Shown here one piece after another: positions 1,543-61,838 of a stretch of 64,000 nucleotides of DNA (the first letter of the stretch is position 1; each line of letters starts with the position of its first letter). Under the pieces are notes generated by a model that saw only the letters and a program-made list of their open reading frames with translations, was not told the origin of the DNA and searched no databases. Both the position numbers and the translations under genes were made by a program. The DNA is from Escherichia phage StefiGeyer_Bas88: the sequence record PQ850628.1; one strand, written 5' to 3'.

Positions 1543-1609
1543 ATATAGTGGGGAGGCTAGTCCTCCCTTTAGTAGTTTACTCCAAGCTATCAACCGAGGG
1601 AGAGATTAG

Positions 1610-3853: not shown

Positions 3854-3862
3854 GGACACTAA

Positions 3863-5178: not shown

Positions 5179-5218
5179 TCGACAAATTATTTTTAAATAG
5201 TATAGGAGCTAACATAAC

Positions 5219-7890: not shown

Positions 7891-7894
7891 AACT

Positions 7895-7925
7895 AAGGCT
7901 GCCTTCGGGTGGCCTTTTCTCATTT
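7895..7925 (+). terminator. intrinsic terminator-like hairpin after capsid gene
   Basis: AAGGCTGCC-TTCG-GGTGGCCTT imperfect stem with UUCG loop followed by TTTTCTCATTTT. Confidence 0.5.
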
Positions 7926-7990
7926 TAAGACCCTTATAAGGAGATATGTAATGTATTCTCTTTGTCTATACACAACTAGGAGGACAAGTT

Positions 7991-8737
7991 ATGGCAATGC
8001 CTGACGTTCAATATCCCATCAATACCTACGGATGGCTCAAGAAAGCTGTGTCCCTCTGGGCTGACAGGGATGATGATGAATTTGTTAATCAGATTCCAAA
8101 CTTTATTAACTTTGCAGAGAAGGAAATTTATCGTAACTTACGAATCCCTCCTCTGGAGAAGGAAGTATATTTAGATATCAAGGATGGTATTGCTTTTATC
8201 CCTCCTGACTTTTTAGAAGCACAATGGATTATGAGAGCTTCAAACGGGATGATGTTCAGAGTAACCTCTCCTGAAGAACTTGACTGGTTGAAGAGAAATA
8301 ACTCAGTCAACCCATCCAATTGGAATCAAGGGGAAGTTGTTTTTGCTCGTTTAGGTAGTCGGTTTATGTTCTACCCTCTAATTGATGCAGATACTCCTGT
8401 TTACCCTGATGATGGAGCACCTGAAATCCCTGCTGAGAATGCTGTAGTTTTAAGCTATTATGCAGACCCACCGGAGTTCCACTCTGATGAAGATACCAGC
8501 GCTATTCTAACTATTGCTCCTGAGCTGCTTCTATATTTTACGCTGCGTCATGCTTCTTTATTCGTTCAAGACGATAATGGAGTTCAAAAGTGGTCAGCAC
8601 TTGGTAAAGCAATCCTTGACGAGATTGTGGAGCAGAGTAAGAAAGCAGAATACTCAGGTTCCCCTCTAGTAATCCCTAATACTATCAGCCGTCTTAATAG
8701 CTCACGAGAAGTGTACGGCATTCGTAGATACAGATAA
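7991..8737 (+). CDS. hypothetical virion protein (possible head-tail adaptor)
   Basis: 248-aa ORF with RBS TAGGAGGA; position between capsid and tail fibre genes. Confidence 0.45.
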   Translation: MAMPDVQYPINTYGWLKKAVSLWADRDDDEFVNQIPNFINFAEKEIYRNLRIPPLEKEVYLDIKDGIAFIPPDFLEAQWIMRASNGMMFRVTSPEELDWLKRNNSVNPSNWNQGEVVFARLGSRFMFYPLIDADTPVYPDDGAPEIPAENAVVLSYYADPPEFHSDEDTSAILTIAPELLLYFTLRHASLFVQDDNGVQKWSALGKAILDEIVEQSKKAEYSGSPLVIPNTISRLNSSREVYGIRRYR

Positions 8738-8746
8738 GGAGAACAT

Positions 8747-11395
8747 ATGATCGTTTATAACAACCAAGAACCTACTACAGTAAATAATGTAGGCCAATTT
8801 GGTGCAACAGAAGGCTCTATCGGAGCCTATAAACAAGCAGCTGAGTATGCTGCTGATTCTAAATATTGGGCACTTTTAGCTGAGTCTAAGTTTGGTACAG
8901 TTGATGATCTTATTGCTGAAGTAGAGAAACTTTATAAGCAGGGTATTCTGTTACAGCAAGATATTGAAGATCTGAAACAGGACTTTAAAGATCAAGATGC
9001 TCGACTGATGCAATTGATTGCACAGACTAACGCAGCTGTTGCTAATGCTAACAACTCTATTGCTTTGATTAACCAAAAACTGATTGAAGTCGATCAGCAA
9101 CTTGATATCCTGTTGGCTATGAAAGTTACAGTGACCACTCTTCCTCCGGGTTCTGAAGCTACTGGTTCTTTCAATAACCAAACTGGTGAAATCAAGCTAG
9201 GTATTCCTGAAGGTGATCCGGGTCGTGATGGTTCTGTAACTGATCTAACTACAGCACCTTCAGGTACTCCTGTTCTTGGTGACATTGGGTTCTATGTAGA
9301 CTCGGAGGATAATAAAGTCTACAAAACAACCCTAAATAACATTGCTAATTTGATCCCTTCTGTTCGTTCTATCAAAGTTAACGATGGTCCAGAACAAACT
9401 GGAGATGTAGCTCTCACTCTTGATAAGAATACAGTTGGACTAGGTAATGTTTTGAACGTTGCTCAATATAGTCGTCAAGAGATTAATGACAAATTCGATA
9501 AACCTATTAAAATATATCAAACTAAAGCTGATGCTGATGCAAATGCTCAATATCGTCAGACAGGCGAATCTGTTATGGTTTGGGAAGATACTCAATATGT
9601 TTTCTATACTGTCGCAGCTAACAAAACACTAATTCCAGCTAAAACCGAAGGTCGTATTGTTACAGTTAACTCTCGATCTCCTGACTCGTCTGGTAACATT
9701 GATATTACTATCCCTACAGGGAACCCTTCTCTGTATCTTGGTGAGATGGTTATGTTCCCATACGATCCAGCTAAGAGTGTTTCTTATCCGGGTGTACTAC
9801 CTGCTGATGGTCGCTTGGTTTCTAAGGAAAGTGCTTTAGATTTAGGTCCATCTTTGGTCAGTGGTCAATTGCCCGTAGTTTCTGAAACAGAGTGGCAAGC
9901 TGGTGCAAAACAGTATTTCTCTTGGGGTAAATTAGCAGATGGTATAACTGATGCAGATTCCACTAATTTTATTAATATTCGCCTACCAGATTGGACAGGT
10001 GGGGAAGCTATACGTTCTCCAGATTCTGTAAAAGACAGTACATATAAAGGTAGTGTTCAGAGTCAGATCCCTTATGTAGTCACTGTTAATAATCAAGCTC
10101 CTGACGAAATCACAGGTAACGTCAACATCTCCAGATCTATACTTGGGGCTGCTTCTTCTGGTGCAAATTCTGATATAACATCTCTCGAAGGGCTTACAAC
10201 AGCACTCTCTGTTACTCAGGGTGGGACAGGAGCAAAAAATACCAATGATGCTAAAACCAATCTAGGTGTAGATAGAATGGTTCAAGGTTCTGGGGAGACT
10301 AAGATCTTATCTCCGAATAAAGAAACCTACATGTTTGTTGATAACAACGGATGGGGCTGTTACCGTACCACGGCTGGGTTGGTCGGTACTGTAGCTTTGT
10401 CAGTTGAAAGAGGGGGCACTGGAGCAACAGATATTGTTAGTGCAAGAGATAATCTAGGACTTAAATCTCTTTCTACATTAGATACTGTTCCAGTAACAAA
10501 AGGTGGGACAGGTGCTAGTGATGCTGCGGAGGCTCGGTCTAACTTAGGTTTAGGTTCTGTTGCCACTCTTAGTAACGTACCAATCGCTAGCGGTGGTACA
10601 GGTGCTGGTGATGCTGCTGGTGCAAGGTTTAATTTGGGGCTGGGAAGTGTTTCTACTCTTAGTAATGTACCTATTGCTAGCGGTGGGACAGGTGCTAGTG
10701 ATGCTGCTGGTGCCCGAATCAATATTGGAGCGCTGAGTAACGCCCCAGCAAACACAGGTACAGGTGGTACAGGTGCGCGAGTCCAACATGCCACCGGAAG
10801 TGGCCTGTTTACTTTAGACATGTTTAACTGCTACTGGTATATGCAGCCAGAGGATACTAACTTCTGGGTTGCCCACGGTGTGTCATATGCAGGAGCTAAT
10901 GGCGAAGCCTCAGATTATGGTCGTATATCTTACGCAATAAAGATTGCAGATGGAACAACAAAATATGTCCATTGTCTTACAAACAAAAACACCACTATTG
11001 ATACAGGTGGATTTATCAAAGCGGCATCTCCGGTAGTTAACATTTATACCAACGGTCAATATGAAACGAATGATGAATCTGAGGGGGTTAGTGTTATCCG
11101 GCAGGGTATTGGTGAATATCTGATTACCGGTTGCCTCGGTCTTAACTCTGATGCAAGATGGGGTGGGGTGGATGGGGGGTTTGAAATCCCAACAGATCGC
11201 AATAAGCAGCCTAGGATTTGGCTGGACTATGAGGTTAAAGAAGATGGTTCTATTTTAGTTAAAACCTATCACAGAACTCACCCAACCTCTCCAGTTTTTG
11301 CTAGAAATGAGATAGAAGGTTTTGCTGATGGAGACCCTATTGATATTCCAAGTGATGCTTTTATCTCAGTTCGTGTAGAGATGCCATCTAAGTAA
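8747..11395 (+). CDS. tail fibre protein
   Basis: 882 aa; N-terminal coiled coil; repeated GGTGA..DA..AR.NLGLGS..TLS.VP motifs resembling phage tail-fibre repeats. Confidence 0.65.
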   Translation: MIVYNNQEPTTVNNVGQFGATEGSIGAYKQAAEYAADSKYWALLAESKFGTVDDLIAEVEKLYKQGILLQQDIEDLKQDFKDQDARLMQLIAQTNAAVANANNSIALINQKLIEVDQQLDILLAMKVTVTTLPPGSEATGSFNNQTGEIKLGIPEGDPGRDGSVTDLTTAPSGTPVLGDIGFYVDSEDNKVYKTTLNNIANLIPSVRSIKVNDGPEQTGDVALTLDKNTVGLGNVLNVAQYSRQEINDKFDKPIKIYQTKADADANAQYRQTGESVMVWEDTQYVFYTVAANKTLIPAKTEGRIVTVNSRSPDSSGNIDITIPTGNPSLYLGEMVMFPYDPAKSVSYPGVLPADGRLVSKESALDLGPSLVSGQLPVVSETEWQAGAKQYFSWGKLADGITDADSTNFINIRLPDWTGGEAIRSPDSVKDSTYKGSVQSQIPYVVTVNNQAPDEITGNVNISRSILGAASSGANSDITSLEGLTTALSVTQGGTGAKNTNDAKTNLGVDRMVQGSGETKILSPNKETYMFVDNNGWGCYRTTAGLVGTVALSVERGGTGATDIVSARDNLGLKSLSTLDTVPVTKGGTGASDAAEARSNLGLGSVATLSNVPIASGGTGAGDAAGARFNLGLGSVSTLSNVPIASGGTGASDAAGARINIGALSNAPANTGTGGTGARVQHATGSGLFTLDMFNCYWYMQPEDTNFWVAHGVSYAGANGEASDYGRISYAIKIADGTTKYVHCLTNKNTTIDTGGFIKAASPVVNIYTNGQYETNDESEGVSVIRQGIGEYLITGCLGLNSDARWGGVDGGFEIPTDRNKQPRIWLDYEVKEDGSILVKTYHRTHPTSPVFARNEIEGFADGDPIDIPSDAFISVRVEMPSK
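10200..10740 (+). repeat. tandem tail-fibre repeat units (about 90 bp / 30 aa each)
   Basis: Near-identical nucleotide units ggtgggacaggtgctagtgatgctgc... repeated; protein units (I/V)ASGGTGA(S/G)DAAGAR.N.GLGSV.TLSNVP. Confidence 0.5.
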
Positions 11396-46146: not shown

Positions 46147-46676
46147 ACCCCTTTAGATGCAACTACACTATTGCTACCATTGTAGCGACCCTTCACTGCA
46201 TATGAATCGTCGCCAGCGTGAGAGTGTTCAAACATAACCATCTGACCAACACGCATTCCAGCACGAACTCGTAAGCTGTGATTGTGGGTAACATTATGGA
46301 ACTCAAAGGTCAGCTTACTGTTGTTAAACCCTGCATCAGCCCAACCAGCATGGAGATGGTTTAAACCACAACGAGCCATTGAGGAGCGGAGTACAAACAG
46401 ACTTGAAATATTATCTGGAAGGTTAAACTCTTCCATTGAGTGAGCTAAGAAGAACTGTCCCGGAGTGATAACGATACCATCTTCAGGGATTTTTACTTCT
46501 TTCCACTTGAGGTTTTCTTTAGCATCAATGTCAACAATACCATCAGCCTGCTCTTCAACAAGGATAGTATCACCAATACGGATATCCACACTAGCAGCGT
46601 TAACATACTTATGCTCCGCATCTAAAAAGCCATTATCAATAACGCTGTGTAATTCTTGAGAACCTAAAAGACTCAT
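46143..46676 (-). CDS. dcd: dCTP deaminase
   Basis: dUTPase-fold motifs ASVDIRIGD, SSMARCGL, AGWADAGF; 177 aa. Confidence 0.75.
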   Translation of the reverse strand: MSLLGSQELHSVIDNGFLDAEHKYVNAASVDIRIGDTILVEEQADGIVDIDAKENLKWKEVKIPEDGIVITPGQFFLAHSMEEFNLPDNISSLFVLRSSMARCGLNHLHAGWADAGFNNSKLTFEFHNVTHNHSLRVRAGMRVGQMVMFEHSHAGDDSYAVKGRYNGSNSVVASKGV

Positions 46677-48109
46677 GAGTTTCTGTTTCCTTGTACAGAT
46701 GATGCCAAATTGTTAATCATATTACGAGCTGTTTCACGAGTTAGTGTAACACCTGCTAAGTTGTTATGAAGTTCACCAGAGAGTTCACGAGCAGTAGCCC
46801 GAAGCTCTTCACCAAGTGAAGTGTTAGAGTGAGCCAAACCATTACGACGACCAACAGGTCGAGGAGTTTCGTTAGCGTCATTAGCTAAAGATGCAAAACC
46901 AATACGAGCAGCTTCACGAGCGGCTATAGCTGCTACCCGATCTTCCGTAGGGGTTGGCAAATCACCAACCCCTACACGTTCAATATCACTAGCACGTAGA
47001 CCCTGAGTAACAGATCTTACTGTTTCCCATGAACGACGAGAGCGCTGCAAATCATCCATTGATGGAGAAGAAACAGGACGAGCAGTTCCTCCTGAGACAT
47101 GCCATGTATGGTTATGCATTCCAGAAGATCGTGCACTACCAAAACTACCGGTGAAAGTATCACGAGGTGCCATTGTACTAGGGGCTGCGAATCTTGCCTG
47201 TTGCCAAGAGTCACGTCTGTCAGTTCCCGGAGTCCAAGGCTGCGTAATTGCTTCAACACCAATAGTGGTTAACTCACTAGACCAATCTGTCTGTAGGTTA
47301 ACTTCTTCATCCAGATAGATACGACCCGCTTCCTGAGGAATATTTAATACAGTTTCCATCATCTTCAAGGTGTAGTGGCGACGTTGATTCTGATACAAGT
47401 TTACACCAGCCATAGGCCCAACTAAATCACTGATCAGATGAACTTCTGGTTCACCAAAAGCTCCCATTGCAAGGTGCATATACTCAGTAGAACTGCTGTA
47501 AACTGCAACTGTTGCTTCAGGCCACTTTTTGTGGACATACTTCATGTCACGACTTGTCACCACAGGGATATCATTAGTATATGCCATTGCAAACATACCT
47601 TCGTTCGACACATACATATCATCGAGAGTCATAAACCCTTGACAGATCATAGGGAAGCGACCGCTCAGAGTATCCATATCCAGAGGAAGGTTAATCATCA
47701 TCTGAATCTTCACTTCATCAATCTCAATTTCCAGAATCTCTTGGAAAGTGAAAAGTGCGTCAGCATAAGTTGTCCCACTAACAGGCTGGACTAAACGAGA
47801 TGTAACTTGAAGTCCCTTACTCTCTGTCCAAGACAAGAAGTTGTCAAGGAACAGTGCAGCATTACCCACGTTAGCAGGGCTGTTTTCCTGACGAGTGTTC
47901 CAACGAAACCCTCCTTGAACTAGGAAGATATCAACATCATTCGGAGTTCGGTTCTGGAAGAACGTATCACGGATAGCACCACCTGCAATAACAGGATAAA
48001 TACCATCAGGGACTACGTTATCTCTGATCAAATTACGAATCAGGTCAAGCCCTACGCTGAGGGCTTCTCCTTCTTGAAGGTTCAATTCAGACAATGGAAT
48101 CTTAATCAT
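46673..48109 (-). CDS. nucleotidyltransferase (CCA-adding enzyme / poly(A) polymerase-like head domain) with low-complexity C-terminal region
   Basis: AGGAIRDTFFQNRTPNDVDIFLV matches the class II tRNA nucleotidyltransferase GGAVRD...DxD motif; C-terminal 200 aa Ser/Arg/Thr-rich. Confidence 0.5.
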   Translation of the reverse strand: MIKIPLSELNLQEGEALSVGLDLIRNLIRDNVVPDGIYPVIAGGAIRDTFFQNRTPNDVDIFLVQGGFRWNTRQENSPANVGNAALFLDNFLSWTESKGLQVTSRLVQPVSGTTYADALFTFQEILEIEIDEVKIQMMINLPLDMDTLSGRFPMICQGFMTLDDMYVSNEGMFAMAYTNDIPVVTSRDMKYVHKKWPEATVAVYSSSTEYMHLAMGAFGEPEVHLISDLVGPMAGVNLYQNQRRHYTLKMMETVLNIPQEAGRIYLDEEVNLQTDWSSELTTIGVEAITQPWTPGTDRRDSWQQARFAAPSTMAPRDTFTGSFGSARSSGMHNHTWHVSGGTARPVSSPSMDDLQRSRRSWETVRSVTQGLRASDIERVGVGDLPTPTEDRVAAIAAREAARIGFASLANDANETPRPVGRRNGLAHSNTSLGEELRATARELSGELHNNLAGVTLTRETARNMINNLASSVQGNRNS

Positions 48110-50480: not shown

Positions 50481-50687
50481 TCAATAAAACGAACGTATTT
50501 CTTCCCACACATCATCTTGAAGATTTTTAAAACCCTGTAAAGCTGATTGGGTTCTCATGATAAAGTCTTCAGAATGTTTATTGCGGTCAAGCATACTGAC
50601 AAACTTGTCATAGCGGTTAATCTTCCACCGTAACTTTAAGTAGTCAGACTCGAGCTTTCTCAGCTTCTGTCGCTCAGTTACTGTCAT
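50481..50687 (-). CDS. hypothetical protein
   Basis: Start taken as internal ATG at 50687 (track start 50786 overlaps the upstream gene by about 110 nt). Confidence 0.35.
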   Translation of the reverse strand: MTVTERQKLRKLESDYLKLRWKINRYDKFVSMLDRNKHSEDFIMRTQSALQGFKNLQDDVWEEIRSFY

Positions 50688-51105
50688 CCTGATCACCTGC
50701 CAGATACGCTGTCCAGTCGCCAGATTCAACCAAAACATCTTGTTCTTCGTCGATATGATAAATCCATGCTTCCACAGTCTCGCCATTATCCAGCACCACT
50801 GGAATCAGTGTACGATTGTAGAAAGTGTATGGATTGTCTTTACCACGATAACCTTCCAGACCGTCATACGGACCTTCCAGACCAGCTTGGGTTGTTTCAA
50901 AGACTTCTACACGAACAGGCTTGCCATTGCTGTCATGCACCAGAGATACACTTGGGAAGTATGCTGTGCAATACTGATACAGGTTACAGTTGTTCACTGT
51001 CCAACCTTCACCAATAGACACACCACCTGCACGAGCATTGATAGCGTGGTTGTGTTGACCTTTACGAAGAGAACCATACGTTGCAACTAATACTTTATCA
51101 GACAT
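50674..51105 (-). CDS. gamma-glutamyl cyclotransferase-like (AIG2/GGACT fold) protein
   Basis: N-terminal YGSL motif (VLVATYGSLRKG), about 143 aa, downstream acidic residues consistent with GGCT-like fold. Confidence 0.55.
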   Translation of the reverse strand: MSDKVLVATYGSLRKGQHNHAINARAGGVSIGEGWTVNNCNLYQYCTAYFPSVSLVHDSNGKPVRVEVFETTQAGLEGPYDGLEGYRGKDNPYTFYNRTLIPVVLDNGETVEAWIYHIDEEQDVLVESGDWTAYLAGDQDDSN

Positions 51106-51140
51106 TATATTACCTTTTGTGTTTCAGTTAAATTCGAACT

Positions 51141-51162
51141 AGCCTCCTCTTTCGAAGAGGCT
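51141..51162 (-). other. stable RNA hairpin with GNRA tetraloop, no U-tract
   Basis: Minus-strand RNA AGCCUCUUC-GAAA-GAGGAGGCU (9-bp stem, one G-U) in the intergenic gap between 51171-51356 and the GGCT-like gene. Confidence 0.35.
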
Positions 51163-51170
51163 AAAGCAAA

Positions 51171-51356
51171 TTATTCTACTTCGAAGTGTTTGATCACACC
51201 AGTCAATACATCAGATTGGAACGTACCTACTAACTCTGCGCCTCGGAAGAAATTGACATTTGTTCCAAGTGTTTCAAAGCGTTCTGCTTGAATGTCCAGA
51301 GATTGAATATTCCCTTCTGAGTTTACTGTACGAAACATGATTGTGTATTTATTCAC
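51171..51356 (-). CDS. hypothetical protein
   Basis: 61-aa ORF, ATGA coupling with the upstream gene. Confidence 0.35.
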   Translation of the reverse strand: MNKYTIMFRTVNSEGNIQSLDIQAERFETLGTNVNFFRGAELVGTFQSDVLTGVIKHFEVE

Positions 51357-51595
51357 AGAGTTGTTACTCCCTTATCTTCTTGTGCAATTGCGATGATACG
51401 CTCAACACATTCCATTGAATATTTATCACCTCGTTTAAGGAAGGTGACAATTGCAGAGAACTGATTACCAATCATTCTCTTGTTTGTGATTCCAAACTCT
51501 TCACAGAGTTGGTTAATAGCTTTACGAGAACCAACAATCAGAGGTTCTTTTTGTTCGGTCATTCCACGACTGATCAAATCTTCGATAGACAACAT
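51353..51595 (-). CDS. hypothetical protein
   Basis: 80-aa ORF. Confidence 0.4.
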   Translation of the reverse strand: MLSIEDLISRGMTEQKEPLIVGSRKAINQLCEEFGITNKRMIGNQFSAIVTFLKRGDKYSMECVERIIAIAQEDKGVTTL

Positions 51596-51615
51596 TACAA
51601 ATTCCTTTTGTTTAA

Positions 51616-52863
51616 TTACAGAGTTACTGCTACTTCACTACCTTCAACAGTTACAGACTCTAACTTACGAGGGTTGTGGACTTGTTGCGGATGAACCGGA
51701 ACGTTCCAGCCACTGCGGTAGAAGTTACGACCATCGCAGAACAGAATGACATTGGCAGACATTGCATTAGGTTGCAGGTTGTTATGAACATGACGAATAT
51801 CTGCAATCCAGTAACCACGAGACAACACATAACCAGTAGGTGCATTACGGATTGTCTGAGTATTCATCTGACCTTCCAGTTGCATTTCTTCAGGAACTAC
51901 ATCCACTGAATCAACCGGCTGTGCGACTTGGCCTTCCAGTGCGAAGTTTTCATCATCAGCACTTTCACTGTCAGCAACCAATTCACCATCTCCATCTTCA
52001 ATTGGAGCTTCAACAGGTGTTGCATAAACCACTTTATACTGAGGAGTATAGAGAGGGTTTTGAGCTTTAACAAACTCAAGGATATTGTGACGGTAGATAT
52101 CCAGAGTTGTGCCAGTTAGGCCCGGTGCTGTATTAACTTCCAGTACCCATGCTTCTTGACCTTTGGTGATGATATCAACTGCACCGAAATCTAGACCCAT
52201 TGATTCAACAGCTTTCACTGCGTTGATCAGAGAGGCATCGTTCGGAACGTCTGTGAAGGAACTTGAGTAAACCCAACCAGTGTGATGGTTACGAACATCT
52301 TCACGATAGTTAGGGTCTTCACGATAACCGTTACGACGAATCTTTTTCTGAACATAGGTGATAGCACCTTTGAACACATGGACACGCCATTCACGACGTG
52401 GGCCTAGAATACCTTTGGTGTACAGTTCAGCTTGACCAACTGAATCACGAGGCTCTACAACAATGATACCTGAACCAGAGTGACCAGTCAGTTCATGACG
52501 TTCATACACAATGTTGCCAGAGTTTGACCACTCCTGAGCAGTTGATTGAACATCTGTATACTCAACAGTTTTAACACCTGCTTGGTCCATTACACTGAAA
52601 GCGCGACGTTTGTTCGCTGCCATATGTAAGGCTGCGGTACGGTTAAGAACAGTTGCAGAACCAAAGAAGGATTCAGGATAGCGACGGTTCCCGTAGTTCA
52701 CAACCACATCACCCTCACGAGAACGCCAGCGACTGTTCTCTGAAAGAAGACCCATTACGTTAGCGTTGATACGTTCATCACGGATAGTATCGTTAATGGC
52801 AGTTACCAGAGCGTTAACAGAATCAGAAGGGCCATACGGAAGAACACGGATACGAGTAGTCAT
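51616..52863 (-). CDS. ATP-grasp family ligase with C-terminal extension
   Basis: RimK/glutathione-synthetase-like core incl. AWVLEVNTAPGL; about 150-aa acidic C-terminal extension. Confidence 0.6.
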   Translation of the reverse strand: MTTRIRVLPYGPSDSVNALVTAINDTIRDERINANVMGLLSENSRWRSREGDVVVNYGNRRYPESFFGSATVLNRTAALHMAANKRRAFSVMDQAGVKTVEYTDVQSTAQEWSNSGNIVYERHELTGHSGSGIIVVEPRDSVGQAELYTKGILGPRREWRVHVFKGAITYVQKKIRRNGYREDPNYREDVRNHHTGWVYSSSFTDVPNDASLINAVKAVESMGLDFGAVDIITKGQEAWVLEVNTAPGLTGTTLDIYRHNILEFVKAQNPLYTPQYKVVYATPVEAPIEDGDGELVADSESADDENFALEGQVAQPVDSVDVVPEEMQLEGQMNTQTIRNAPTGYVLSRGYWIADIRHVHNNLQPNAMSANVILFCDGRNFYRSGWNVPVHPQQVHNPRKLESVTVEGSEVAVTL

Positions 52864-52865
52864 TT

Positions 52866-53096
52866 TTAGATACCTTTTAGTTTAAGAATTTCGTTACGAC
52901 AGGATTGAATTTTAACTTCGATTTCCCAATACTTGGCGAACATCTCGTCTTCTTGGTCATCGCTTGGTGAATCAATTAGGTTAAAAGCAAACGGATACAG
53001 CTTTCGCTGCTCCGTTACCAGTTGTTGAAGTCGGAGTTGTTGATACTCCAGCATTGTCAGGTGAGGCTTAGCTCCCTTGCTTGACATGAGGCTCAA
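52866..53096 (-). CDS. hypothetical protein
   Basis: 76-aa ORF within cassette. Confidence 0.35.
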   Translation of the reverse strand: MSLMSSKGAKPHLTMLEYQQLRLQQLVTEQRKLYPFAFNLIDSPSDDQEDEMFAKYWEIEVKIQSCRNEILKLKGI

Positions 53097-53301
53097 CTTT
53101 AATCCCCTTCAATTTCACATAGTCAGCCAACACGTTGTTGATAACGGTTGGGAAAGGGATTTCAACTGGAGAGTTAACCAGTCCCCCAATACCTTCTTGC
53201 ATCCATTTCTGAATAGCTCGAAGGTTATCACATCCTGTGCTTGTCATTGGGATACGTCGAGTGGTTACAACGTTATCCAACATCAATTTACGAACTTCCA
53301 T
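53068..53301 (-). CDS. hypothetical protein
   Basis: 77-aa ORF within cassette. Confidence 0.35.
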   Translation of the reverse strand: MEVRKLMLDNVVTTRRIPMTSTGCDNLRAIQKWMQEGIGGLVNSPVEIPFPTVINNVLADYVKLKGIKVEPHVKQGS

Positions 53302-53312
53302 AACTTCACCTC

Positions 53313-55346
53313 TTAATGTTTACCTTTACAGTAATCTGAATTACAGATCACCCTGTTTTCTTTGTTTAGTGAGCAAATTTCTGCATCACGCCACGGAATT
53401 TGTTTATAACAGACCGCACAAAACCCAATTGAAGTCCAGAGGGCTTTTGTGAACTCAGCTGTTCGTTGTCCGTCGTAACTGACAACTGTTTTTCGGAGAG
53501 TTGTTTGCTTTTCTGGAAATGTTTCCGCTTTCTCAGCGGGCACCTCCTTTGGGGCATTCTTTGGACCATAAACAGAGATGGCATAGGTATCGCCACCACG
53601 TTTTTCCAAATAAGAGTTTGGAACATCAGACAGCTCAATATCACCAGAACGTTTAGCTGAACTAGCCATTACAGTCATTCGGCTAAGCATACGCTGATCA
53701 ACACGAACTGCTACTTCAGGGCGACGTGGGTTAGTTGTGTCGACTGCTTTAGTCCAAATGTAACCTTCAGACAATGTAGTGTTAGTCACTTTGTCTTTGA
53801 TTTCTTTGGCACAGACATAACAAATATCTTCACCACGAAGTTTACTCATTTCGTTATCAAACTCGAAATCAGTTTTAACATTGCCACATACAGCACAGAC
53901 ACCTAAAGGAATGTCTTCATCTTCTTCAGACGGTTTGGACAACGCTTCGAAACAGGCCGGATGCCAATATGCTTGGTAAGCGAACACAGCTTTCTTAGCA
54001 TCTTTCCATTCAATGTGCTTGTCACAACCGCCACAATCACCATGAGAATGTGATTCCCAGAACTTACGGGTGACTTCCACACCATTCTTAGTGATGAAGG
54101 AGTCTTCTAAATCAAAAGGGATATCATCATCAAAATCAGCGGTGGTGCTTTGAGGCTCCTTATCGGTAGCATCAACAAACAGCCCTGAAGTGAGTACGAG
54201 GCGAATCATACTGTCCACTTCGGAGATACAAGCAACCGTCCCGCGATACACCACCTTTGGGTTTTCGAGAGCCTTCAAGTATTCACTCTTGGCTACATTA
54301 TGAACATCACCCTCAACATACTCTTGAGCAGCATCATCATAAATATAACCAACCATCTTACCACGGTCAGTGTTGTTGTAAGCGTGGAACTCGTGAGGGA
54401 TGATATCCACACGACCGTCACGACGATACGGAAGACCACGATCGGCAGCCAGTTTATTCTGATCTTCAATCGCTTTACGACGACGAATGTCTCCGCTTGT
54501 CACGCCGGGCTTGTCGTCTTTGTTTCCGTAAATGTCGCTTGTGCTGCTGCTTGACTTGTTTGTCTGTTGGTTCTGATATAGAGAGGAGTTCGAGTAATAG
54601 CCGCCCCAGCGACTCGTTACCGTAAAAACCGGAAGCTTGTGCTCCACCTCTTGAGTCAGAGTCATACGGTTGCCAGACAAATCAAAGATGTATTCAGTTC
54701 CCACTTTACACTCAAAGTGATCATTGATACGGTTCTTGTGTGACTTGGAACGATTAAGAATCCACATCAACATATCTTCTTCAGAAGCACCAAACCAATC
54801 CAGACCACAACGGGCCAGATGGAAAGGACGTTCATCGTTACGAATGATATGCAGAGTATTGTCTTTGGCGTCATGCCAGATTAAAGTGAACGCACCATCC
54901 AACTTCTGGATAGTCTCTGCTGCGCCGATGGTGTTGATTGAATGACAGATGTTTTCGCTATCAACTTCGAAATTCTTATGATCTGGTAACAGTTCCTGAT
55001 CTAACAGTGTACCATTATGAACCAGAGTAATGTCACCATGAGAGAATGGGTGAGCATTTCGAGCATTGACAGCACCACGTGTGGCATGTCGGCTATGACC
55101 AACAATCCACGATGGAGGAACTACATAGTTCGTAAGCCCCTTAGTAAGATTCGTGTACCCTGTCTGGAGCATGAAGGCATAGGAAGGAAGTGCTTCTTTA
55201 TAAGAAAATACTTTTTCATCACCTTTACGCTGACCGAACACACCAGTTGAGTGCTGACCACGGAAGACTCCAGCATACAGAAGCTGGTTGAATACGTCTA
55301 AGTCTGTGGAGGTCATGTTGCCCCCAGCTAATACGATACCACAAAT
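53313..55346 (-). CDS. class-II (Ntn-type) glutamine amidotransferase with C-terminal zinc-ribbon region; probable non-AUG start
   Basis: HSRHATRGAVNARNAHPF...HNGTL GATase-II motifs; the conserved catalytic N-terminus CGIVLAGGN lies upstream of the first in-frame ATG (55316), reached only via ATT at 55346-55344, itself preceded by AGGTGG; C-terminal Cys clusters CGGC...CAVCGN...CYVC...CAVC...CNSDYC. Confidence 0.65.
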   Translation of the reverse strand: MCGIVLAGGNMTSTDLDVFNQLLYAGVFRGQHSTGVFGQRKGDEKVFSYKEALPSYAFMLQTGYTNLTKGLTNYVVPPSWIVGHSRHATRGAVNARNAHPFSHGDITLVHNGTLLDQELLPDHKNFEVDSENICHSINTIGAAETIQKLDGAFTLIWHDAKDNTLHIIRNDERPFHLARCGLDWFGASEEDMLMWILNRSKSHKNRINDHFECKVGTEYIFDLSGNRMTLTQEVEHKLPVFTVTSRWGGYYSNSSLYQNQQTNKSSSSTSDIYGNKDDKPGVTSGDIRRRKAIEDQNKLAADRGLPYRRDGRVDIIPHEFHAYNNTDRGKMVGYIYDDAAQEYVEGDVHNVAKSEYLKALENPKVVYRGTVACISEVDSMIRLVLTSGLFVDATDKEPQSTTADFDDDIPFDLEDSFITKNGVEVTRKFWESHSHGDCGGCDKHIEWKDAKKAVFAYQAYWHPACFEALSKPSEEDEDIPLGVCAVCGNVKTDFEFDNEMSKLRGEDICYVCAKEIKDKVTNTTLSEGYIWTKAVDTTNPRRPEVAVRVDQRMLSRMTVMASSAKRSGDIELSDVPNSYLEKRGGDTYAISVYGPKNAPKEVPAEKAETFPEKQTTLRKTVVSYDGQRTAEFTKALWTSIGFCAVCYKQIPWRDAEICSLNKENRVICNSDYCKGKH

Positions 55347-55423
55347 TTTCTAATCCACCTGAAGGGTAAACCCTTTCATCTAATTAACCTTTAAATGCGC
55401 CCTTTATCAGAGCGCCCATTGTG

Positions 55424-56524
55424 TTACAGCAGTCGTTCTAATTGCATTTCCAGATGGTCTGGAATGTAATCGGTGATGTTATTATCACTGCTACCTGATT
55501 CACGCATCAGAGCAAACATGTGACGAATTTCACGAACCGTTGCGATTCGAGTGTTTTCAATCTGAGGGGTGTAATAGGTCATGATCTCTTCATAAACAGA
55601 GTTAGCATTACCTCGTACATATCCCAAGAAACCGTAGAAGTCACCCATGTCACGCAAGTTGATAAGGATTTCACCATCAGGTCCAGTCTGCTGTACACGA
55701 ACACGACCAACCAGAGTAACAGAATGTTCACGACAGAACAGAATATCACGAGCCAAACGATAACCGCCAGTCAGGTCATCATCATTAGGTGTGTAGTCCA
55801 GAGGCAGATACTGAATCATAGGAGCGAAGCGTAGCTCATTCAGTTTCTCAACATATGCTTCATTGTCCAAATCTGCATACTCAACAGCTAGTTTCTTGAG
55901 AACCAAGAAGCGGTTGACCAGATTAAGGAGTTGGCTTTTCTTCCACTTTGGCTCTGAGATACGAAATTCAACAGAACCAAACTGAGCCAGAGGTAATAGG
56001 TTAAGGGAGGTGTACTTGTCCCAGCTATTAACAAGAGTATTGAAGAAGGCTTCACCATCTCGGTTGAACGCTGCGGAAGCATTCATTACCTGTGCTTGAA
56101 CAACAGCAAAGGCAGGACAGAAGTTGCTACGATAGCGATGGTATCCAGAACATTTGAACATCATCTTTTCATAGAACGTCCATCCAAGAATTACTTTCTT
56201 CAGGATGTTACTATCAGCGTCACGCATATCCATATGAACGTGAGTAGAGCAGCGCCAAGTCCCTTCAGCTTCAGAGTCTTGTACTGCTTCACTCAGATTG
56301 TTAATAGCACTAAGCAATTCTACACCGTTATAAGGCCGTGCACAAACCATCTCACAGCCATCACGAAGTGAACCATCTTCAGTACAAACCCAAAGGTCTG
56401 CATCAATTTCAGAGGTTCCTTCAACTTCCAGCTCGATGCCAATACCACACTGAAAAGCGATGCTTGGGTGCGGCTCAGCCAGACGAGCATTACGGTATCC
56501 AAAAACTTGTGCTACGGTTGTCAT
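55424..56524 (-). CDS. glutamine-synthetase-like carboxylate-amine ligase (amidoligase)
   Basis: GIGIELEVEG and RCSTHVHMD resemble GCS2/YbdK-type amidoligase motifs. Confidence 0.5.
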   Translation of the reverse strand: MTTVAQVFGYRNARLAEPHPSIAFQCGIGIELEVEGTSEIDADLWVCTEDGSLRDGCEMVCARPYNGVELLSAINNLSEAVQDSEAEGTWRCSTHVHMDMRDADSNILKKVILGWTFYEKMMFKCSGYHRYRSNFCPAFAVVQAQVMNASAAFNRDGEAFFNTLVNSWDKYTSLNLLPLAQFGSVEFRISEPKWKKSQLLNLVNRFLVLKKLAVEYADLDNEAYVEKLNELRFAPMIQYLPLDYTPNDDDLTGGYRLARDILFCREHSVTLVGRVRVQQTGPDGEILINLRDMGDFYGFLGYVRGNANSVYEEIMTYYTPQIENTRIATVREIRHMFALMRESGSSDNNITDYIPDHLEMQLERLL

Positions 56525-57147
56525 AACGTTTCCACCAACTCTACATTATATGATGACAGATCTGAAGAAATATGCTTGAACTTCTCCAGAAGATTTAAAG
56601 ATTGACGACCATTGTCGCCGTAACCAGCAGAAAGATCAACTTGACCTACAAGTGCCCCTTTGTAATAAACTTTACCATCGACAGGGTTGATGTAGATGAA
56701 GCGAGTAACCAGACCTTCGAAGTCAGGATTAAACAGATTATACACCAGCTCTCCCGGAATCGAACGACCCATTGAAGGAGGTGCGCCACGTAATTTGTTC
56801 CCCATCAGACCTTTAGCTCGCTGACGAACAGGGTTGATATGAGTCCAGCTTACCATGTTGTTGCCGTGTTGTAAGTATCCCACATCTGGAGATTCCAGAA
56901 TAAGGCTTTGATCAAACACAGGAATGCCCTGAACAACCTGTCGTTCAAACTGCCCTTCGGCGTTCTTAGACCAGCGTTCAACTTCAAAAGTTAAGGCCAT
57001 TTCTGCTTCGTGAGAGAAGTCATCTTCTCCAAAGCGGTTTGCTTGGTTCACGTTGAGTACATAAAGAGGTAAGTTAATTCCTCGTTCTGCACGTTGGGCA
57101 ATCCATGTTCCGCAATAATAATGCTGAAAATCTCTTAACAGGCTCAC
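56521..57147 (-). CDS. hypothetical protein (cassette member)
   Basis: 208-aa ORF, ATGA coupling. Confidence 0.45.
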   Translation of the reverse strand: MSLLRDFQHYYCGTWIAQRAERGINLPLYVLNVNQANRFGEDDFSHEAEMALTFEVERWSKNAEGQFERQVVQGIPVFDQSLILESPDVGYLQHGNNMVSWTHINPVRQRAKGLMGNKLRGAPPSMGRSIPGELVYNLFNPDFEGLVTRFIYINPVDGKVYYKGALVGQVDLSAGYGDNGRQSLNLLEKFKHISSDLSSYNVELVETL

Positions 57148-57156
57148 GATAACACC

Positions 57157-57963
57157 TTAGATAATCTGGAGTTTAGAGGAGAACTTATCCGCTTCTTTAA
57201 CATCGTTGCTATTGATGATGTTGTGAAGCTTTTCGATAGGCAGACGGGAGTGCAGAGACATGAGAATTTCCATATCACAGCCCTGAATAACCTTATCAAC
57301 TTGATCGTAAACAAACTTACGAGTGGACTGTTCACCAATCCAGAAGTTCGACAGAGAACGGTATTCAATACCATAATCTTTATAACGAATAGCAGATGCC
57401 TTGCCGTAAAGCTCTTTACGACGAGTGTCCTTATCCATAATTACCGCTGGAAGTGACAAGAAGTAATCACACAGAACACCCAGCATCATCTGAGTCTGTC
57501 GAGTTACTTCCAAAGACCCTGCAACACCGAGGTGTACGTGACCGCCAGCAGTACGAAGACCTTTGTCTGTCGCTACCGGAGATGGGTTTTTCTGACCAGT
57601 GAAGGCGTTGAAATCAGGAGTACAGCCAAACACAAAGGCTGATGGATGGAATGATTGCAGCTCTTCAGAAGTGTACACATGAGAACTAATCCCAAGTGCA
57701 GCTTCCATACCACGTTCATTAAGAACTTTGTTGGTCAGATCAATACCACGCTGGATGTTATCATCAAACGCTTCGAACCCTTTCTGTGGGTTAATATCGA
57801 ATTCAGCCAGAACGTTGTCTTCTTGAAGACGAACATCAGGGGCCAGATCAATTTTGTTATCTTTAGAACAGCCCAGCTTACCAGCCACAGAGGTGATAAT
57901 ACCAGAAGCAGTACGAACAAACATTTCAGGGTCAGAACCAATAAGGAAAGCACGCTTAGTCAT
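57157..57963 (-). CDS. second carboxylate-amine ligase-like protein (COOH-NH2 ligase type)
   Basis: ATG at 57963 (overlaps upstream stop); FLIGSDPEMF and GGHVHLGV motifs. Confidence 0.45.
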   Translation of the reverse strand: MTKRAFLIGSDPEMFVRTASGIITSVAGKLGCSKDNKIDLAPDVRLQEDNVLAEFDINPQKGFEAFDDNIQRGIDLTNKVLNERGMEAALGISSHVYTSEELQSFHPSAFVFGCTPDFNAFTGQKNPSPVATDKGLRTAGGHVHLGVAGSLEVTRQTQMMLGVLCDYFLSLPAVIMDKDTRRKELYGKASAIRYKDYGIEYRSLSNFWIGEQSTRKFVYDQVDKVIQGCDMEILMSLHSRLPIEKLHNIINSNDVKEADKFSSKLQII

Positions 57964-58906
57964 TGTAATACTCCACAAGTTCATCAAAAAGGGAAACAAC
58001 ACGGGCACCAGCTTCTTCTGGTGTCATTGAGGAAGGTACTGCTTGCATCAAGCGTTCAATAAAACTGCGAACAGTAATTCTGTCCATACGCTGATCTAAT
58101 ACTTCACGTTTATGGCCTGCACACATTGACCAGAGACGCAACCACTCACTCATACTTTCGTAATAGTCAGGGTCTTGGTCACGACGACGAGCCATACTAC
58201 GAAGAACTCCGTCATTATGGTTTCGTACATAACCATCTCTGTTATCACCAACACCGAACACGTTCTGAACCCATACGTTTTCAGAAAATTCGTCAGTGGT
58301 ACAGACCAGTGGCAAGAATGCAATTGCACTCATTTCGCCAGTAAAATAGGTCGCTGCTGATTCATCATCAGTATCCACATCATGTGAATAATCCCAACGA
58401 CCAAAGAAGTTACGACTTAAACCAGCTAAGCGTAAAGCTAAGCCGATTCGTTGTCGCTTGAGTAACTCTTCCTTGTCTTGAACGCCTTCCTGAAGGAACT
58501 CCATTCCCATAAAATCCCCATCCAGATAACTACGGAGGGTCATTAATCCAGTAAACACCTTGTCTGCTGGGTGGTCTCGAAGGTTCACGGCAACTGAGTT
58601 CACCGAAGTGACAGAGAACATGTTTTTATAGCAAGACATTGAGTTAAAAATGTCTGTTGCTTCAACTAAAGCTCTTTCGATATCTTTAGCTGGTACGCCA
58701 TAAAAATTGTGAGGCCAGAAGTTGATAACTCCAACTTCTGAAGTTCTATCACGAAGGCTTGAGAGATTGATACTGTCGCCATTAATGTCTGTAACAGCAT
58801 ACATATGCTGACAGTTGAAAGTACCAAAACAAGCTCGCCCTCTGAACACTGACTCACCAAAGTTCTCTGATGGTGTTACCGGAGCAGTCGATGCGGAGAT
58901 TGACAT
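57956..58906 (-). CDS. hypothetical protein (cassette member)
   Basis: 316-aa ORF, no recognisable motif. Confidence 0.45.
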   Translation of the reverse strand: MSISASTAPVTPSENFGESVFRGRACFGTFNCQHMYAVTDINGDSINLSSLRDRTSEVGVINFWPHNFYGVPAKDIERALVEATDIFNSMSCYKNMFSVTSVNSVAVNLRDHPADKVFTGLMTLRSYLDGDFMGMEFLQEGVQDKEELLKRQRIGLALRLAGLSRNFFGRWDYSHDVDTDDESAATYFTGEMSAIAFLPLVCTTDEFSENVWVQNVFGVGDNRDGYVRNHNDGVLRSMARRRDQDPDYYESMSEWLRLWSMCAGHKREVLDQRMDRITVRSFIERLMQAVPSSMTPEEAGARVVSLFDELVEYYND

Positions 58907-58914
58907 ATTCGCCT

Positions 58915-60132
58915 CTATTTATTGAAGAATAATTTTTCCAAAATGTTTTCCCACTCTTCTGAGGGACGTACTGTATAATTACTACCTGTCAGTCCATTGG
59001 ACATACTACTGATAATGTTATACATGTTGTAGCTTCGAGCTGAAGCTGTTTCATTGTTCCAGTTATAACCGAACACAATTTTAGCAAAAGATGTTTCAGA
59101 TTCAGCCACCTCTCGGATAAATTCAACCAAGAGTGACTTTTCTGTGATGATTGGGCGGGTATCTTCCGACAGATGGCAATATTGAGGCAAAAGGATTGGC
59201 AAGAACATCGAGTTGTTCACTCGACAATCACGAACACCTTCACTGCGATAGATCAGACTGGAGAAGTCTTCATCACGAAGATGACCTTCACCTCCAGTGT
59301 ATTCACACTGTCGCCATTTGGTCTGGCGAGGCTCAACCATTGTACTACCAACACCCACTGTATACAGAGATGCTTGGAAGATACAGGAATCGTAATCATT
59401 CCCTGTTAAAGCAACACGTTCGTTACCGAACACATCCACTGAAGAGTTGATCAGTCGGCTGAATGCAAGAGAGGCTAAAGGAGACCAGCCCTTCTTATAC
59501 ATCTTGTTCAACATTTCATACACAGCAGATTTTTCATCATCTGTATAGAATGTGCGATTCAACATCAGATAGAACAGAGCACGATCAGCGGGACAGCCAT
59601 CAGTGCAAACACCCATGAACCCTACTTCATGCCATACCAGACATGAGTCAGAGTCTTTGTCCATGAATGCTGCAAAGGTTTCCATAACAACACGATCAGT
59701 GATGTCAGGACGGTTGTTTTCTTCTGCCCACGTTTCCACATGAGAAGGAGGACGAGGGTCTTCATTTTCTAACCCTTCACGGAAATACTGAGTAGCGATA
59801 TATTCAGTATCACCATAACGTCTTACACCGTGAGCTGGAAGATGTGTTCCGGAGTTCCAGATATACTTGATTTCAGACATAGGCAACATATTCTCAAGAA
59901 CGTTCTCTTCAGCAGTGCCTTGACGAACCATCATATTTCCACTCCACACCTTGATGCGGATATTCCAGCCGAAATTACTATCGTATGTATTATAGTAATC
60001 AGGATCACCATCTTCATCATCGTCATAATCACCACCCTGATAGTAACCTGCTTTCAGGAAACCATAACAAGGGGGCCAGACGGTTACAACGTCTTCTGAT
60101 TCTTTCCAGCTTTGAAGTGTTACAGGGAACAT
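58915..60132 (-). CDS. hypothetical protein (cassette member)
   Basis: 405-aa ORF, RBS GAGGT; acidic N-terminal tract DYDDDEDGDPDYY. Confidence 0.45.
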   Translation of the reverse strand: MFPVTLQSWKESEDVVTVWPPCYGFLKAGYYQGGDYDDDEDGDPDYYNTYDSNFGWNIRIKVWSGNMMVRQGTAEENVLENMLPMSEIKYIWNSGTHLPAHGVRRYGDTEYIATQYFREGLENEDPRPPSHVETWAEENNRPDITDRVVMETFAAFMDKDSDSCLVWHEVGFMGVCTDGCPADRALFYLMLNRTFYTDDEKSAVYEMLNKMYKKGWSPLASLAFSRLINSSVDVFGNERVALTGNDYDSCIFQASLYTVGVGSTMVEPRQTKWRQCEYTGGEGHLRDEDFSSLIYRSEGVRDCRVNNSMFLPILLPQYCHLSEDTRPIITEKSLLVEFIREVAESETSFAKIVFGYNWNNETASARSYNMYNIISSMSNGLTGSNYTVRPSEEWENILEKLFFNK

Positions 60133-60688: not shown

Positions 60689-60716
60689 TTAAAAAAGGAC
60701 TCTCCTAAGAGAGCCA
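60689..60716 (-). terminator. intrinsic terminator (minus strand)
   Basis: Minus-strand RNA GGCUCUC-UUAG-GAGAGUCC followed by UUUUUU. Confidence 0.6.
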
Positions 60717-61424: not shown

Positions 61425-61838
61425 TTAAACAACGAATTGGAACGCTTCGTATCCAAACTTATAAGAGAAGTCGTGCTTAAACTTCACTACACGACCACGA
61501 TCACGGAAAGATTTCAGACGGCTGCTGAACCCAGCCATTGGCTCAGGGTCAATAGGACTACGAATCTTCATAGCTACAGAATGCAGCTTGAAGCGTTTAC
61601 CAGTGCTACAGGCCATCATCACATACTCCATACGAGTAGTCCAGATGTTGAGCACCATGCTTGTTTTCTCCGCTGACCAACCAGTCTTACGGGCGATTTC
61701 CTTATGGATGTTAAGCTCCAAAGGAAGAGGGAATTGCTTGTTGAATGAAGCCGGATAAAGCTTGACCAGAAGATCAATGTTTTCTTTATACGTGAGGTAG
61801 GCCAATTTCTTGCTTACGTTGGGGAATTTCCCAGACAT
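61425..61838 (-). CDS. ProQ/FinO-domain-like RNA-binding protein (putative)
   Basis: YPASFNKQFPLPLELNIHKEIARKTGWSAEKTSMVLNIWTTRMEY resembles ProQ N-terminal FPHCF...PLKIGIFQDL...LRSALRLYTSSWRYL. Confidence 0.45.
   Translation of the reverse strand: MSGKFPNVSKKLAYLTYKENIDLLVKLYPASFNKQFPLPLELNIHKEIARKTGWSAEKTSMVLNIWTTRMEYVMMACSTGKRFKLHSVAMKIRSPIDPEPMAGFSSRLKSFRDRGRVVKFKHDFSYKFGYEAFQFVV

Follow-up and report, generated by a model that had tools for sequence, protein, structure and literature searches.

Identity and Conservation of the Gene Block

What do phages make with a cassette of amide-bond enzymes that takes up 12–18% of the genome in those that carry it? The question is raised by a run of minus-strand genes at positions 50674–60132 of a 64,000 nt stretch of DNA from Escherichia phage StefiGeyer_Bas88 (PQ850628.1), the whole of which is referred to here as the window. 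A first-pass annotation, made from the letters alone, had recognized in this block an ATP-grasp ligase, a class-II glutamine amidotransferase, two carboxylate-amine ligase-like proteins and a gamma-glutamyl-cyclotransferase-like (GGCT-like) protein. All of these genes were found on the minus strand where they had been placed, and the families proved to be right. In the Pfam profile searches that had been suggested, four of the five enzymes scored above curated cutoffs, while the fifth, the ATP-grasp protein, fell just under its cutoff and was assigned through PHROG, ortholog and PDB sequence matches. Our tentative reading, held with somewhat less than even confidence, is that the cassette encodes a phage-specific pathway that would build, and then trim, a small amide-linked product of the gamma-glutamyl type in the middle phase of infection. 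The earlier proposal of a product that is built and turned over fits all of the findings, and is strengthened by the hydrolase that replaces the cyclotransferase in Zobellviridae (see below).

Sequence comparison identifies the window as belonging to a phiEco32-like podovirus. The block is 98.9% identical to that of Escherichia virus TH43 and 95.7% identical to that of ECBP2, and full-length matches were found in 22 phiEco32-like podoviruses (Gordonclarkvirinae). By the same comparison it is the ortholog of phiEco32 gp77–gp88, a gene block catalogued as "amidoligase", and the curated record of phage Bas87 annotates the same genes as gamma-glutamyl cyclotransferase, S6 glutaminyl transferase, aminotransferase, amidoligase and COOH.NH2 ligase. 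The genes are orthologous to, and in the same order as, those of the phiEco32 gp77–gp88 and LUZ24 gp14–gp22 clusters, from which StefiGeyer_Bas88 differs only in details of lineage (no HNH insertion, no N-terminal extension of the amidoligase, and a longer unkA protein). The cassette is already known, since it was predicted computationally by Iyer, Abhiman, Burroughs and Aravind in 2009 (as cited in PMC10580990 and PMC11318856), is the source of a Pfam family name, and is annotated in many GenBank records. The first-pass annotation had correctly pointed to both a comparative-genomic prediction of phage amidoligase clusters, which is the 2009 study as cited in those two papers, and a Pfam family named after phiEco32 ligases (PF14395, matched here). 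What is added here is the start of the amidotransferase, the exclusion of gp79 from the chemistry, the paralogy of unkA and unkB, an invariant core of four enzymes, and an argument against bulk DNA modification.

The ordered block recurs in nine independent phage loci, which places it far beyond chance. The order is unkA, unkB, the COOH-NH2 ligase, a 200-aa protein, Amidoligase_2, the amidotransferase, DUF7195, the ATP-grasp ligase, the cyclotransferase and then primase/helicase. The same order is found in Gordonclarkvirinae, Grimontviridae, Bruynoghevirus, Vicosavirus and a divergent 94-kb metagenomic phage, with Proteus phage Privateer, Aeromonas phage BUCT695, Pseudomonas phages LUZ24 and Rembedalsseter, and phiEco32 as named examples, and it persists down to approximately 30% protein identity. 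In Zobellviridae (Phriendly, CVT22, GP100) the block is permuted (large unknown, Peptidase_C26/class-I amidotransferase-like hydrolase, amidotransferase, ligase, 190-aa protein, amidoligase, ATP-grasp) and is again followed by primase/helicase. Four of the enzymes co-occur at every phage locus examined, and at every locus the cassette lies directly upstream of primase/helicase; it had been described as inside the replication module, and is instead at the upstream edge of it. All cassette genes run in one direction and their starts overlap or lie close together, as had been noted, the exception being a conserved 77-nt leader before the amidotransferase gene. Many relatives (ECBP2, E20-1, SU7 and Bas86, as well as UFV-P2, GP100 and Phriendly) carry an HNH homing-endonuclease insertion of approximately 0.6 kb within the cassette, at a site that varies by lineage, and StefiGeyer_Bas88 is without it.

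A tblastn search detected the COOH-NH2 ligase in 310 of 50,697 phage records. Scanning 100,044 species genomes for the same ligase returned 20 loci, all on short contigs that were either binned into metagenome-assembled genomes (MAG) or contaminants, and in eight of nine further MAG-binned contigs of this species-genome collection that are not close relatives the full enzyme quartet lies within approximately 5 kb. By these results the module is owned by phages and was not taken from host chromosomes. Since members of the ligase family come almost exclusively from phage-like contigs, a bacterial operon context for it is not obtainable.

The Three Ligases

The COOH-NH2 ligase (57157–57963, minus strand, 268 aa) is a GCS/GS-like carboxylate-amine ligase of family PF14395, recognized by Pfam (33.1 bits for 57157–58008, cutoff 25), by PHROG 3815 (E = 3e-112) and by its motifs. 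The mechanical open reading frame (ORF) extends to a GTG at 58008, and the start is most likely the ATG at 57963, as annotated in Bas87. Across ten phage lineages there are 39 invariant columns, including DPE, GGH.H.G and EYR.LSN.W, and by sequence the protein has no solved relative. The HVH motifs seen in the translations read STHVHMD and GGHVHLG. The second GS-like enzyme, Amidoligase_2 (PF12224; 55424–56524, minus strand, 366 aa), scored 28.6 bits against a Pfam cutoff of 22 and matched PHROG 7469 with an E-value of 2e-143. It has orthologs in nine of nine loci, and its gene adjoins that of the amidotransferase at every locus, an arrangement that we take to be the one described in the Pfam entry for PF12224 (a neighborhood with an amidotransferase-like or AIG2 protein). 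The Amidoligase_2 proteins of Privateer and BUCT695 have an N-terminal extension of 100–157 aa that the StefiGeyer_Bas88 version is without.

The third ligase (51616–52863, minus strand, 415 aa) has an acidic linker and an extra C-terminal domain of approximately 70 aa. It scored 19.9 bits against Pfam RimK, just short of the cutoff of 21, and its ortholog in Privateer (43% identical) scored 33.7 bits. The protein matched PHROG 2599 (E = 1e-171), the C-terminal domain matched PHROG 20552, and the top PDB match was RimK (E = 2e-3). Motifs expected for Mg-ATP binding, a glycine-rich loop and an E.N motif can be read in the translation (HSGSGI, EWRVHVF, VDIIT...LEVNTAPG), and the stretch that carries them is the part that aligned to the RimK, MptN, CofF and Ddl models of Pfam and NCBIfam. 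Taken together, PHROG 2599, the Privateer ortholog, the PDB match and the Mg-ATP motifs support the prediction that this is a RimK-like ATP-grasp protein. All NCBIfam equivalog cutoffs were missed by a wide margin (MptN, 35.4 of 350 bits; RimK, 21.8 of 331; CofF, 15.7 of 300), so that no substrate can be transferred from the RimK, MptN or CofF families.

The Amidotransferase Gene and its Leader

The class-II (Ntn) glutamine amidotransferase was identified by Pfam GATase_6 (55.3 bits, cutoff 27, E = 9e-15) and GATase_7 (25.4 bits, cutoff 25). The mechanical ORF, which starts at the ATG at 55316 and encodes 667 aa, is without the N-terminal cysteine that defines the class. Upstream of this ATG the in-frame sequence reads TAG AAA ATT TGT GGT ATC GTA, and a start at the AUU at 55346 would give (M)CGIVLAG, with an AGGTGG Shine–Dalgarno sequence 8 nt upstream. 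The ATT-TGT start is common to Bas87, phiEco32 (where ATT is given in the RefSeq annotation) and BUCT695, while the amidotransferases of Privateer, LUZ24 and Zobellviridae start with ATG-TGT; residue 2 of the ATT-start protein aligned to position 2 of the GlmS model. On this comparison, translation is predicted to begin at ATT 55346, and the gene (53313–55346, minus strand) to encode 677 rather than 667 aa. The earlier description of an amidotransferase with zinc ribbons at 53313–55316 thus stands as to family and ribbons, and its start is corrected to one that restores the catalytic cysteine.

In the predicted protein the Ntn domain is followed by a low-complexity linker, then by a beta-rich domain in the middle, and at the C-terminus by three CxxC...CxxC zinc ribbons; at least one such ribbon is present in every amidotransferase ortholog. 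The glutamine-binding motifs are conserved relative to GlmS and YafJ. No synthase domain of a known type (SIS, PRTase, Asn-synthetase) was found by Pfam or NCBIfam in residues 240–677, where the sole domain signal was a weak LIM-like zinc-finger match.

Between the amidotransferase gene and that of Amidoligase_2 lies the 77 nt leader (55347–55423, minus strand), which contains a hairpin, a 46-nt core and the Shine–Dalgarno sequence. When the leaders of the window, Bas87, phiEco32 and Aeromonas phage BUCT695 were aligned, the core (ATTAGATGAAAGGGTTTACCCTTCAGGTGGATTAGAAAATTTGTGG) was near-identical between the Escherichia and Aeromonas phages, while the adjoining proteins are only approximately 38% identical. 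The core occurs once in the window. The hairpin, which lies upstream of it, shows compensatory changes in phiEco32; the folding energy of the leader is unexceptional (z = −0.79) and it has no match in Rfam. The AUU start, the conserved leader and the compensated hairpin together suggest that the amidotransferase gene may be under translational control.

The Cyclotransferase and its Replacement

The final enzyme gene of the cassette (50674–51105, minus strand) encodes a 143 aa gamma-glutamyl(amine) cyclotransferase of the AIG2/GGACT family. It scored 59.9 bits against Pfam GGACT (PF06094; cutoff 22.8, E = 4.7e-16), covering 118 of 120 profile positions, matched PHROG 2520 (E = 1.6e-42), and carries the substrate-binding motif YGSL at residues 10–13. 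Orthologs were found in BUCT695, LUZ24, Rembedalsseter and one metagenomic relative. In the blocks of Zobellviridae, a Peptidase_C26 gamma-glutamyl hydrolase occurs in place of the GGACT cyclotransferase; the two enzymes are unrelated and have the same bond specificity. In Privateer, neither a cyclotransferase nor a C26 hydrolase was detected in the 18.5-kb stretch around the cassette; the cyclotransferase may lie elsewhere in that genome, or the unannotated gp083–gp085 may replace it.

A Proposed Pathway for a Gamma-Glutamyl-Type Product

The catalytic motifs of the cassette enzymes are preserved (in the amidotransferase, Cys1 and the motifs for glutamine binding; in the ligase, DPE/H.H/EYR; in the ATP-grasp protein, E.N; in the cyclotransferase, YGSL), and we favor the pathway reading because the enzyme set matches that of pathways in which a gamma-glutamyl group is put on and then taken off again. 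In such a scheme, the PF14395 ligase, Amidoligase_2 and the RimK-like ATP-grasp protein would each form one amide bond at the expense of ATP, the two GS-like ligases probably via an acyl-phosphate, as glutamate-cysteine ligase does, and the ATP-grasp protein most likely by adding an alpha-linked amino acid such as glutamate. The N-terminal cysteine of the amidotransferase may hydrolyze glutamine and pass ammonia to a ligase-activated carboxylate to give a carboxamide, or the enzyme may instead hydrolyze a gamma-glutamyl amide in the manner of EgtC. The cyclotransferase, or the C26 hydrolase in Zobellviridae, would take off the gamma-glutamyl group as 5-oxoproline, either to recycle the product or to release a transient protecting group, as with BtrG in butirosin synthesis. 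The 208-aa protein, DUF7195 and unkA/unkB would be dedicated partners that serve as scaffold, carrier or additional catalytic subunits. Family membership, the catalytic motifs, the strict co-occurrence in a fixed order and the confinement to phages are shown by the data; in what order the enzymes act, whether glutamate or glutamine is used, and what the acceptor is are parts of this scheme that we infer. As the product we lean towards a small peptide-like molecule, either free or bound to a carrier, and not towards a DNA tag.

Comparable enzyme sets occur in several known systems. Glutathione synthesis and the gamma-glutamyl cycle (GshA, GshB, GGCT/ChaC) similarly combine a GCL-type ligase, an ATP-grasp enzyme and a gamma-glutamyl cyclotransferase, whereas the phage block has two GS-like ligases and, in addition, an amidotransferase as well as four dedicated proteins without assigned function, and none of its enzymes reached the NCBIfam equivalog cutoffs of the glutathione enzymes. 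In butirosin synthesis, BtrJ adds a gamma-glutamyl group and BtrG removes it as 5-oxoproline, with the intermediates held on a small dedicated protein (BtrI). The pairing of an ATP-grasp (BtrJ) with an AIG2-like or GGACT-family enzyme (BtrG) is shared, with homology at the superfamily level only; unlike the butirosin cluster, the phage block has no acyl-carrier protein, pyridoxal phosphate (PLP) decarboxylase or acyltransferase detectable by Pfam or NCBIfam. EgtA/EgtC couples a GCL-like ligase to a class-II hydrolase, and PuuD, the partner of PuuA, is a class I (C26) enzyme that removes a gamma-glutamyl amide. The phage cassettes are alike in having a GS/GCL-like ligase with an amidotransferase-fold hydrolase, and both hydrolase types occur among the versions of the block. 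The match of the phage amidotransferase to EgtC is, however, marginal (E = 0.0065, far under the cutoff), and its C-terminal zinc-ribbon region of approximately 430 aa is without counterpart in EgtC or PuuD.

Experimental evolution of a Bruynoghevirus yielded two independent lines in which both the amidoligase and the amidotransferase carried missense rather than null mutations (PMC11450229). These parallel changes show that the cassette pathway is tuned by selection during host adaptation.

Several points weigh against a small-molecule pathway. The literature searched reports no substrate, product or knockout of the cassette, in agreement with the first-pass annotation, which knew of no experimental function, substrate or product. 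Nothing separates a free metabolite from a macromolecular acceptor, and the zinc ribbons, the RimK-type ATP-grasp and the proteins that do not look like enzymes suit a protein or nucleic-acid target equally well or better; RimK, the archetype of such ATP-grasp enzymes, modifies a protein. The share of the genome occupied by the cassette, together with its adjacency to replication genes, is unusual in a pathway that makes a small metabolite and is what DNA-modification cassettes typically show. Finally, with the ATP-grasp protein so far under every equivalog cutoff, the amino acid it adds is a guess.

Proteins without Assigned Chemistry

No Pfam family was matched by 52866–53096, 56521–57147, 57956–58906, 58915–60132, 50481–50786, 51171–51356 or 51353–51595. 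The first gene of the block, unkA (58915–60132, minus strand, 405 aa), belongs to a phage-restricted family: a profile search of 1.84 billion representative proteins returned 23 relatives, all of the cassette-phage type. Structure prediction, proposed earlier for the unassigned proteins, gave a confident fold for unkA, and its structural neighbors in a viral structure library occur only in cassette phages; the matches, all uncharacterized, include two paralogs in Cronobacter phage GAP52 and a 503-aa protein of Salinivibrio phage CW02. In StefiGeyer_Bas88 the protein is approximately 100 aa longer than in Grimontviridae. The following gene, unkB (57956–58906, minus strand, 316 aa), seeded an iterative HMM that recruited unkA orthologs, and the two proteins have the motifs PAD[RK]..GLM..R and W.Q...G.G[HY].R[DN] in common, by which they are identified as distant paralogs. 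Cys22, Asp183 and His284 are invariant in unkA, with Tyr at the His position in unkB, and the two may possibly be an active/inactive pair. Profiles of unkA, unkB and the 208-aa family had no match in the PDB. Comparison of unkA and unkB with both GS-like ligase families by hhalign gave no signal, and nor did the positive control (PF14395 against Amidoligase_2).

The 208-aa protein (56521–57147, minus strand) is encoded between the two GS-like ligase genes at every locus. Positional orthologs were found by HMM in Privateer, BUCT695, LUZ24 (gp17) and Rembedalsseter, motifs are held in common with the Zobellviridae versions, and the 36 homologs are all approximately 200 aa long and on phage-sized contigs. 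It has few invariant residues (D6, Y10, P87, K112-G113, K163-G164 and G168), and is a candidate for a scaffold-like or carrier-like rather than an enzyme-like role.

In the phiEco32, Privateer and LUZ24 lineages, the gene that comes after that of the amidotransferase is always the one for DUF7195 (53068–53301, minus strand, 77 aa; Pfam E = 1.4e-18). This small protein corresponds to LUZ24 gp20 and Rembedalsseter CDS0035, is present in one metagenomic relative, and was not detected in the Zobellviridae versions. Next to it is the gene for a small helical protein of 73 aa (52866–53087, minus strand; the ORF searched against Pfam was 52866–53096), which matched PHROG 13464, a group with no assigned function, and has orthologs by HMM only in Bas87 and phiEco32. 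A role for these small proteins as carriers with Pup-like or LysW-like tails was considered and rejected, since the alignments show no such tail.

Alternative Explanations

A doubtful but serious alternative is that the product is a tagged protein. The acceptor would be a protein of the host or the phage, and the GS-like ligases would join glutamate or a short peptide to one of its lysines or to its C-terminal carboxylate. The ATP-grasp protein would extend the chain, the amidotransferase would deamidate or de-tag in the manner of Dop, and the cyclotransferase would clear gamma-glutamyl-epsilon-lysine remnants. Precedents are PafA, which attaches Pup, Dop, a deamidase and de-tagging enzyme, and RimK, which modifies ribosomal protein S6. 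RimK proteins are the nearest solved relatives of the phage ATP-grasp, GGACT-family enzymes are known to use gamma-glutamyl-amines such as gamma-glutamyl-epsilon-lysine, and zinc ribbons are present on every amidotransferase ortholog. As in pupylation (PafA, Dop, Pup), paired GS-fold enzymes acting on a gamma-glutamyl linkage are accompanied by small proteins, and two of these (DUF7195 and the 208-aa protein) are conserved, the latter with its two invariant Lys-Gly pairs. The title of Iyer et al. (2009), as given in the citing papers, also frames such systems as candidates for peptide tagging. However, unlike in pupylation, alignments of DUF7195 and the 73-aa and 208-aa proteins show no conserved C-terminal Gly-Gly-Gln/Glu and no acidic tail, their C-termini not being conserved. 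The failure to detect DUF7195 in the Zobellviridae versions, the lack of a proteasome-like or AAA partner near the block, and the fact that known phage protein modifications are the work of single enzymes and not of nine-gene sets also speak against protein tagging.

An improbable extension of this idea is that the cassette makes a covalent adduct of a new kind on a macromolecule, either a glutamyl or peptide tag on a host or phage protein or a nucleic-acid modification of low abundance, with unkA and unkB as cysteine-dependent transfer enzymes of a new fold, and that this might explain the resistance of Gordonclarkvirinae to restriction and to most of the defense systems tested. The PADLOC models for defense and counter-defense gave no match to the ten block proteins.

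Modification of nucleic acid more generally, by which an amino acid or amide would be placed on a DNA base, a nucleotide precursor or a tRNA, appears quite unlikely to be the function of the cassette. It would explain the finding of the BASEL study that Gordonclarkvirinae are remarkably restriction-resistant with no known modification pathway. The window holds 9 EcoRI, 27 EcoRV, 6 EcoKI and 114 EcoP1I sites, so that avoidance of sites is not the cause of this resistance. The block is always next to replication genes, a cassette of several genes in a phage replication module is typically a DNA-modification pathway, and nucleic acid could be what the zinc ribbons bind. Against this stands Rembedalsseter, which has the complete cassette and whose native DNA sequenced and mapped normally on nanopore, appearing unmodified relative to an amplified control from which it differed only by 13 nicks (PMC11780129). 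Pfam and NCBIfam detected no hydroxymethylase, base-exchange (TGT/DpdA-like) or DNA-kinase-type enzyme in the block, the BASEL authors name other genes (dCTP deaminase and nucleotidyltransferase), both of which are missing from Rembedalsseter, and the window shows no enrichment of the LUZ24-group nick motif. DNA modification by the cassette is therefore judged unlikely, and the attachment of a tag to a DNA base, one of the acceptors first suggested, is disfavored by the Rembedalsseter comparison.

Several observations on the window belong beside this question. The LUZ24-group nick motif WACTRTGMC was rejected as a feature of the window (2 matches, 4.4 expected). There is a strong depletion of palindromic hexamers (580 occurrences where base composition predicts 1068), twelve of which, mostly GC-rich, are missing; GATC occurs 137 times, under half of the Markov expectation of 298. 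Site avoidance was nonetheless rejected as the basis of resistance to restriction-modification (RM), as the sites of the four enzymes above are present, and those of EcoRI and EcoRV are not avoided. The 478-aa protein encoded at 46673–48109 (minus strand), a "nucleotidyltransferase" in relatives and of a type linked by the BASEL authors to possible DNA modification, had no Pfam match at E = 0.01, so the label rests on something other than Pfam.

Equally hard to sustain is a role in the cell wall, in which the enzymes would amidate or extend the gamma-D-glutamyl stem peptide of peptidoglycan precursors, or otherwise modify the envelope, to exclude superinfecting phages or tune lysis. This is the published prediction of Iyer et al. 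(2009) as summarized in PMC10580990 and PMC11318856; stem-peptide chemistry does combine ATP-grasp ligation (Ddl) with class-II amidation (AsnB/LtsA-type), and the evolved Bruynoghevirus lines with amidoligase and amidotransferase mutations had also mutated the virion peptidoglycan transglycosylase. Nevertheless, slow remodeling of the wall would be a poor return on 8–10 kb for virulent phages with short latent periods, Pfam and NCBIfam detected no Mur-ligase, transpeptidase, flippase or signal-peptide protein in the block, and the block is kept across differing host envelopes, including contigs binned with Bacteroidota, Patescibacteria and archaea.

gp79 and Flanking Features

Between the ATP-grasp and cyclotransferase genes lies the ortholog of phiEco32 gp79 (51353–51595, minus strand), identified by its match to PDB 9m7y_G, "gp79" (E = 1.3e-38). 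In phiEco32, gp79 is a middle-gene, RNA-polymerase-binding factor that displaces sigma-70 (PMC12276001, PMC8948821). Phage 7-11 is missing gp79 and keeps the ligase, and gp79 is a passenger in the block that stands outside the ligase chemistry. The first-pass annotation had counted at least five proteins with no recognizable motif; such proteins are indeed present, and 51353–51595 is to be removed from them. Residues 46–78 of gp79 gave secondary matches to TAL-effector repeats (E = 3e-13), with no stretch passing alone. The neighboring 61-aa ORF (51171–51356, minus strand) is restricted to Gordonclarkvirinae, with orthologs just in Bas87 and phiEco32.

A terminator-like hairpin with a T-run at 60698–60715 (minus strand), found by a consensus scan only, lies upstream of two small genes that precede unkA, and probably marks the boundary, or start, of the transcription unit that contains the cassette. 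A motif scan found no exact copy of the phiEco32 gp36-type promoter (TAATGTATA) inside the block. Further upstream, a 137-aa early-region protein (61425–61838, minus strand) was placed in the ProQ/FinO RNA-chaperone family by Pfam (27.2 bits, cutoff 27, E = 4e-6). In a divergent metagenomic phage with the same cassette (L010–L012, positions 400–9300), genes for PRPP synthetase, an NAPRTase-family enzyme, TerC, TerD and a vWA-TerF-like protein are found just upstream of the cassette, and resemble an NAD-salvage and tellurite-resistance-like set.

Significance

The phages that carry this cassette are widely isolated and used therapeutically (Kuravirus and its relatives, Bruynoghevirus), and also include marine Zobellviridae. 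BASEL phages Bas86–Bas93 bear the cassette and grow on engineered E. coli K-12, which makes both genetics and metabolomics practical. Identifying the product would give a function to two Pfam ligase families and to the unkA-type family with its phage-only predicted fold, and would show which metabolite or modification a large group of phages depends on.

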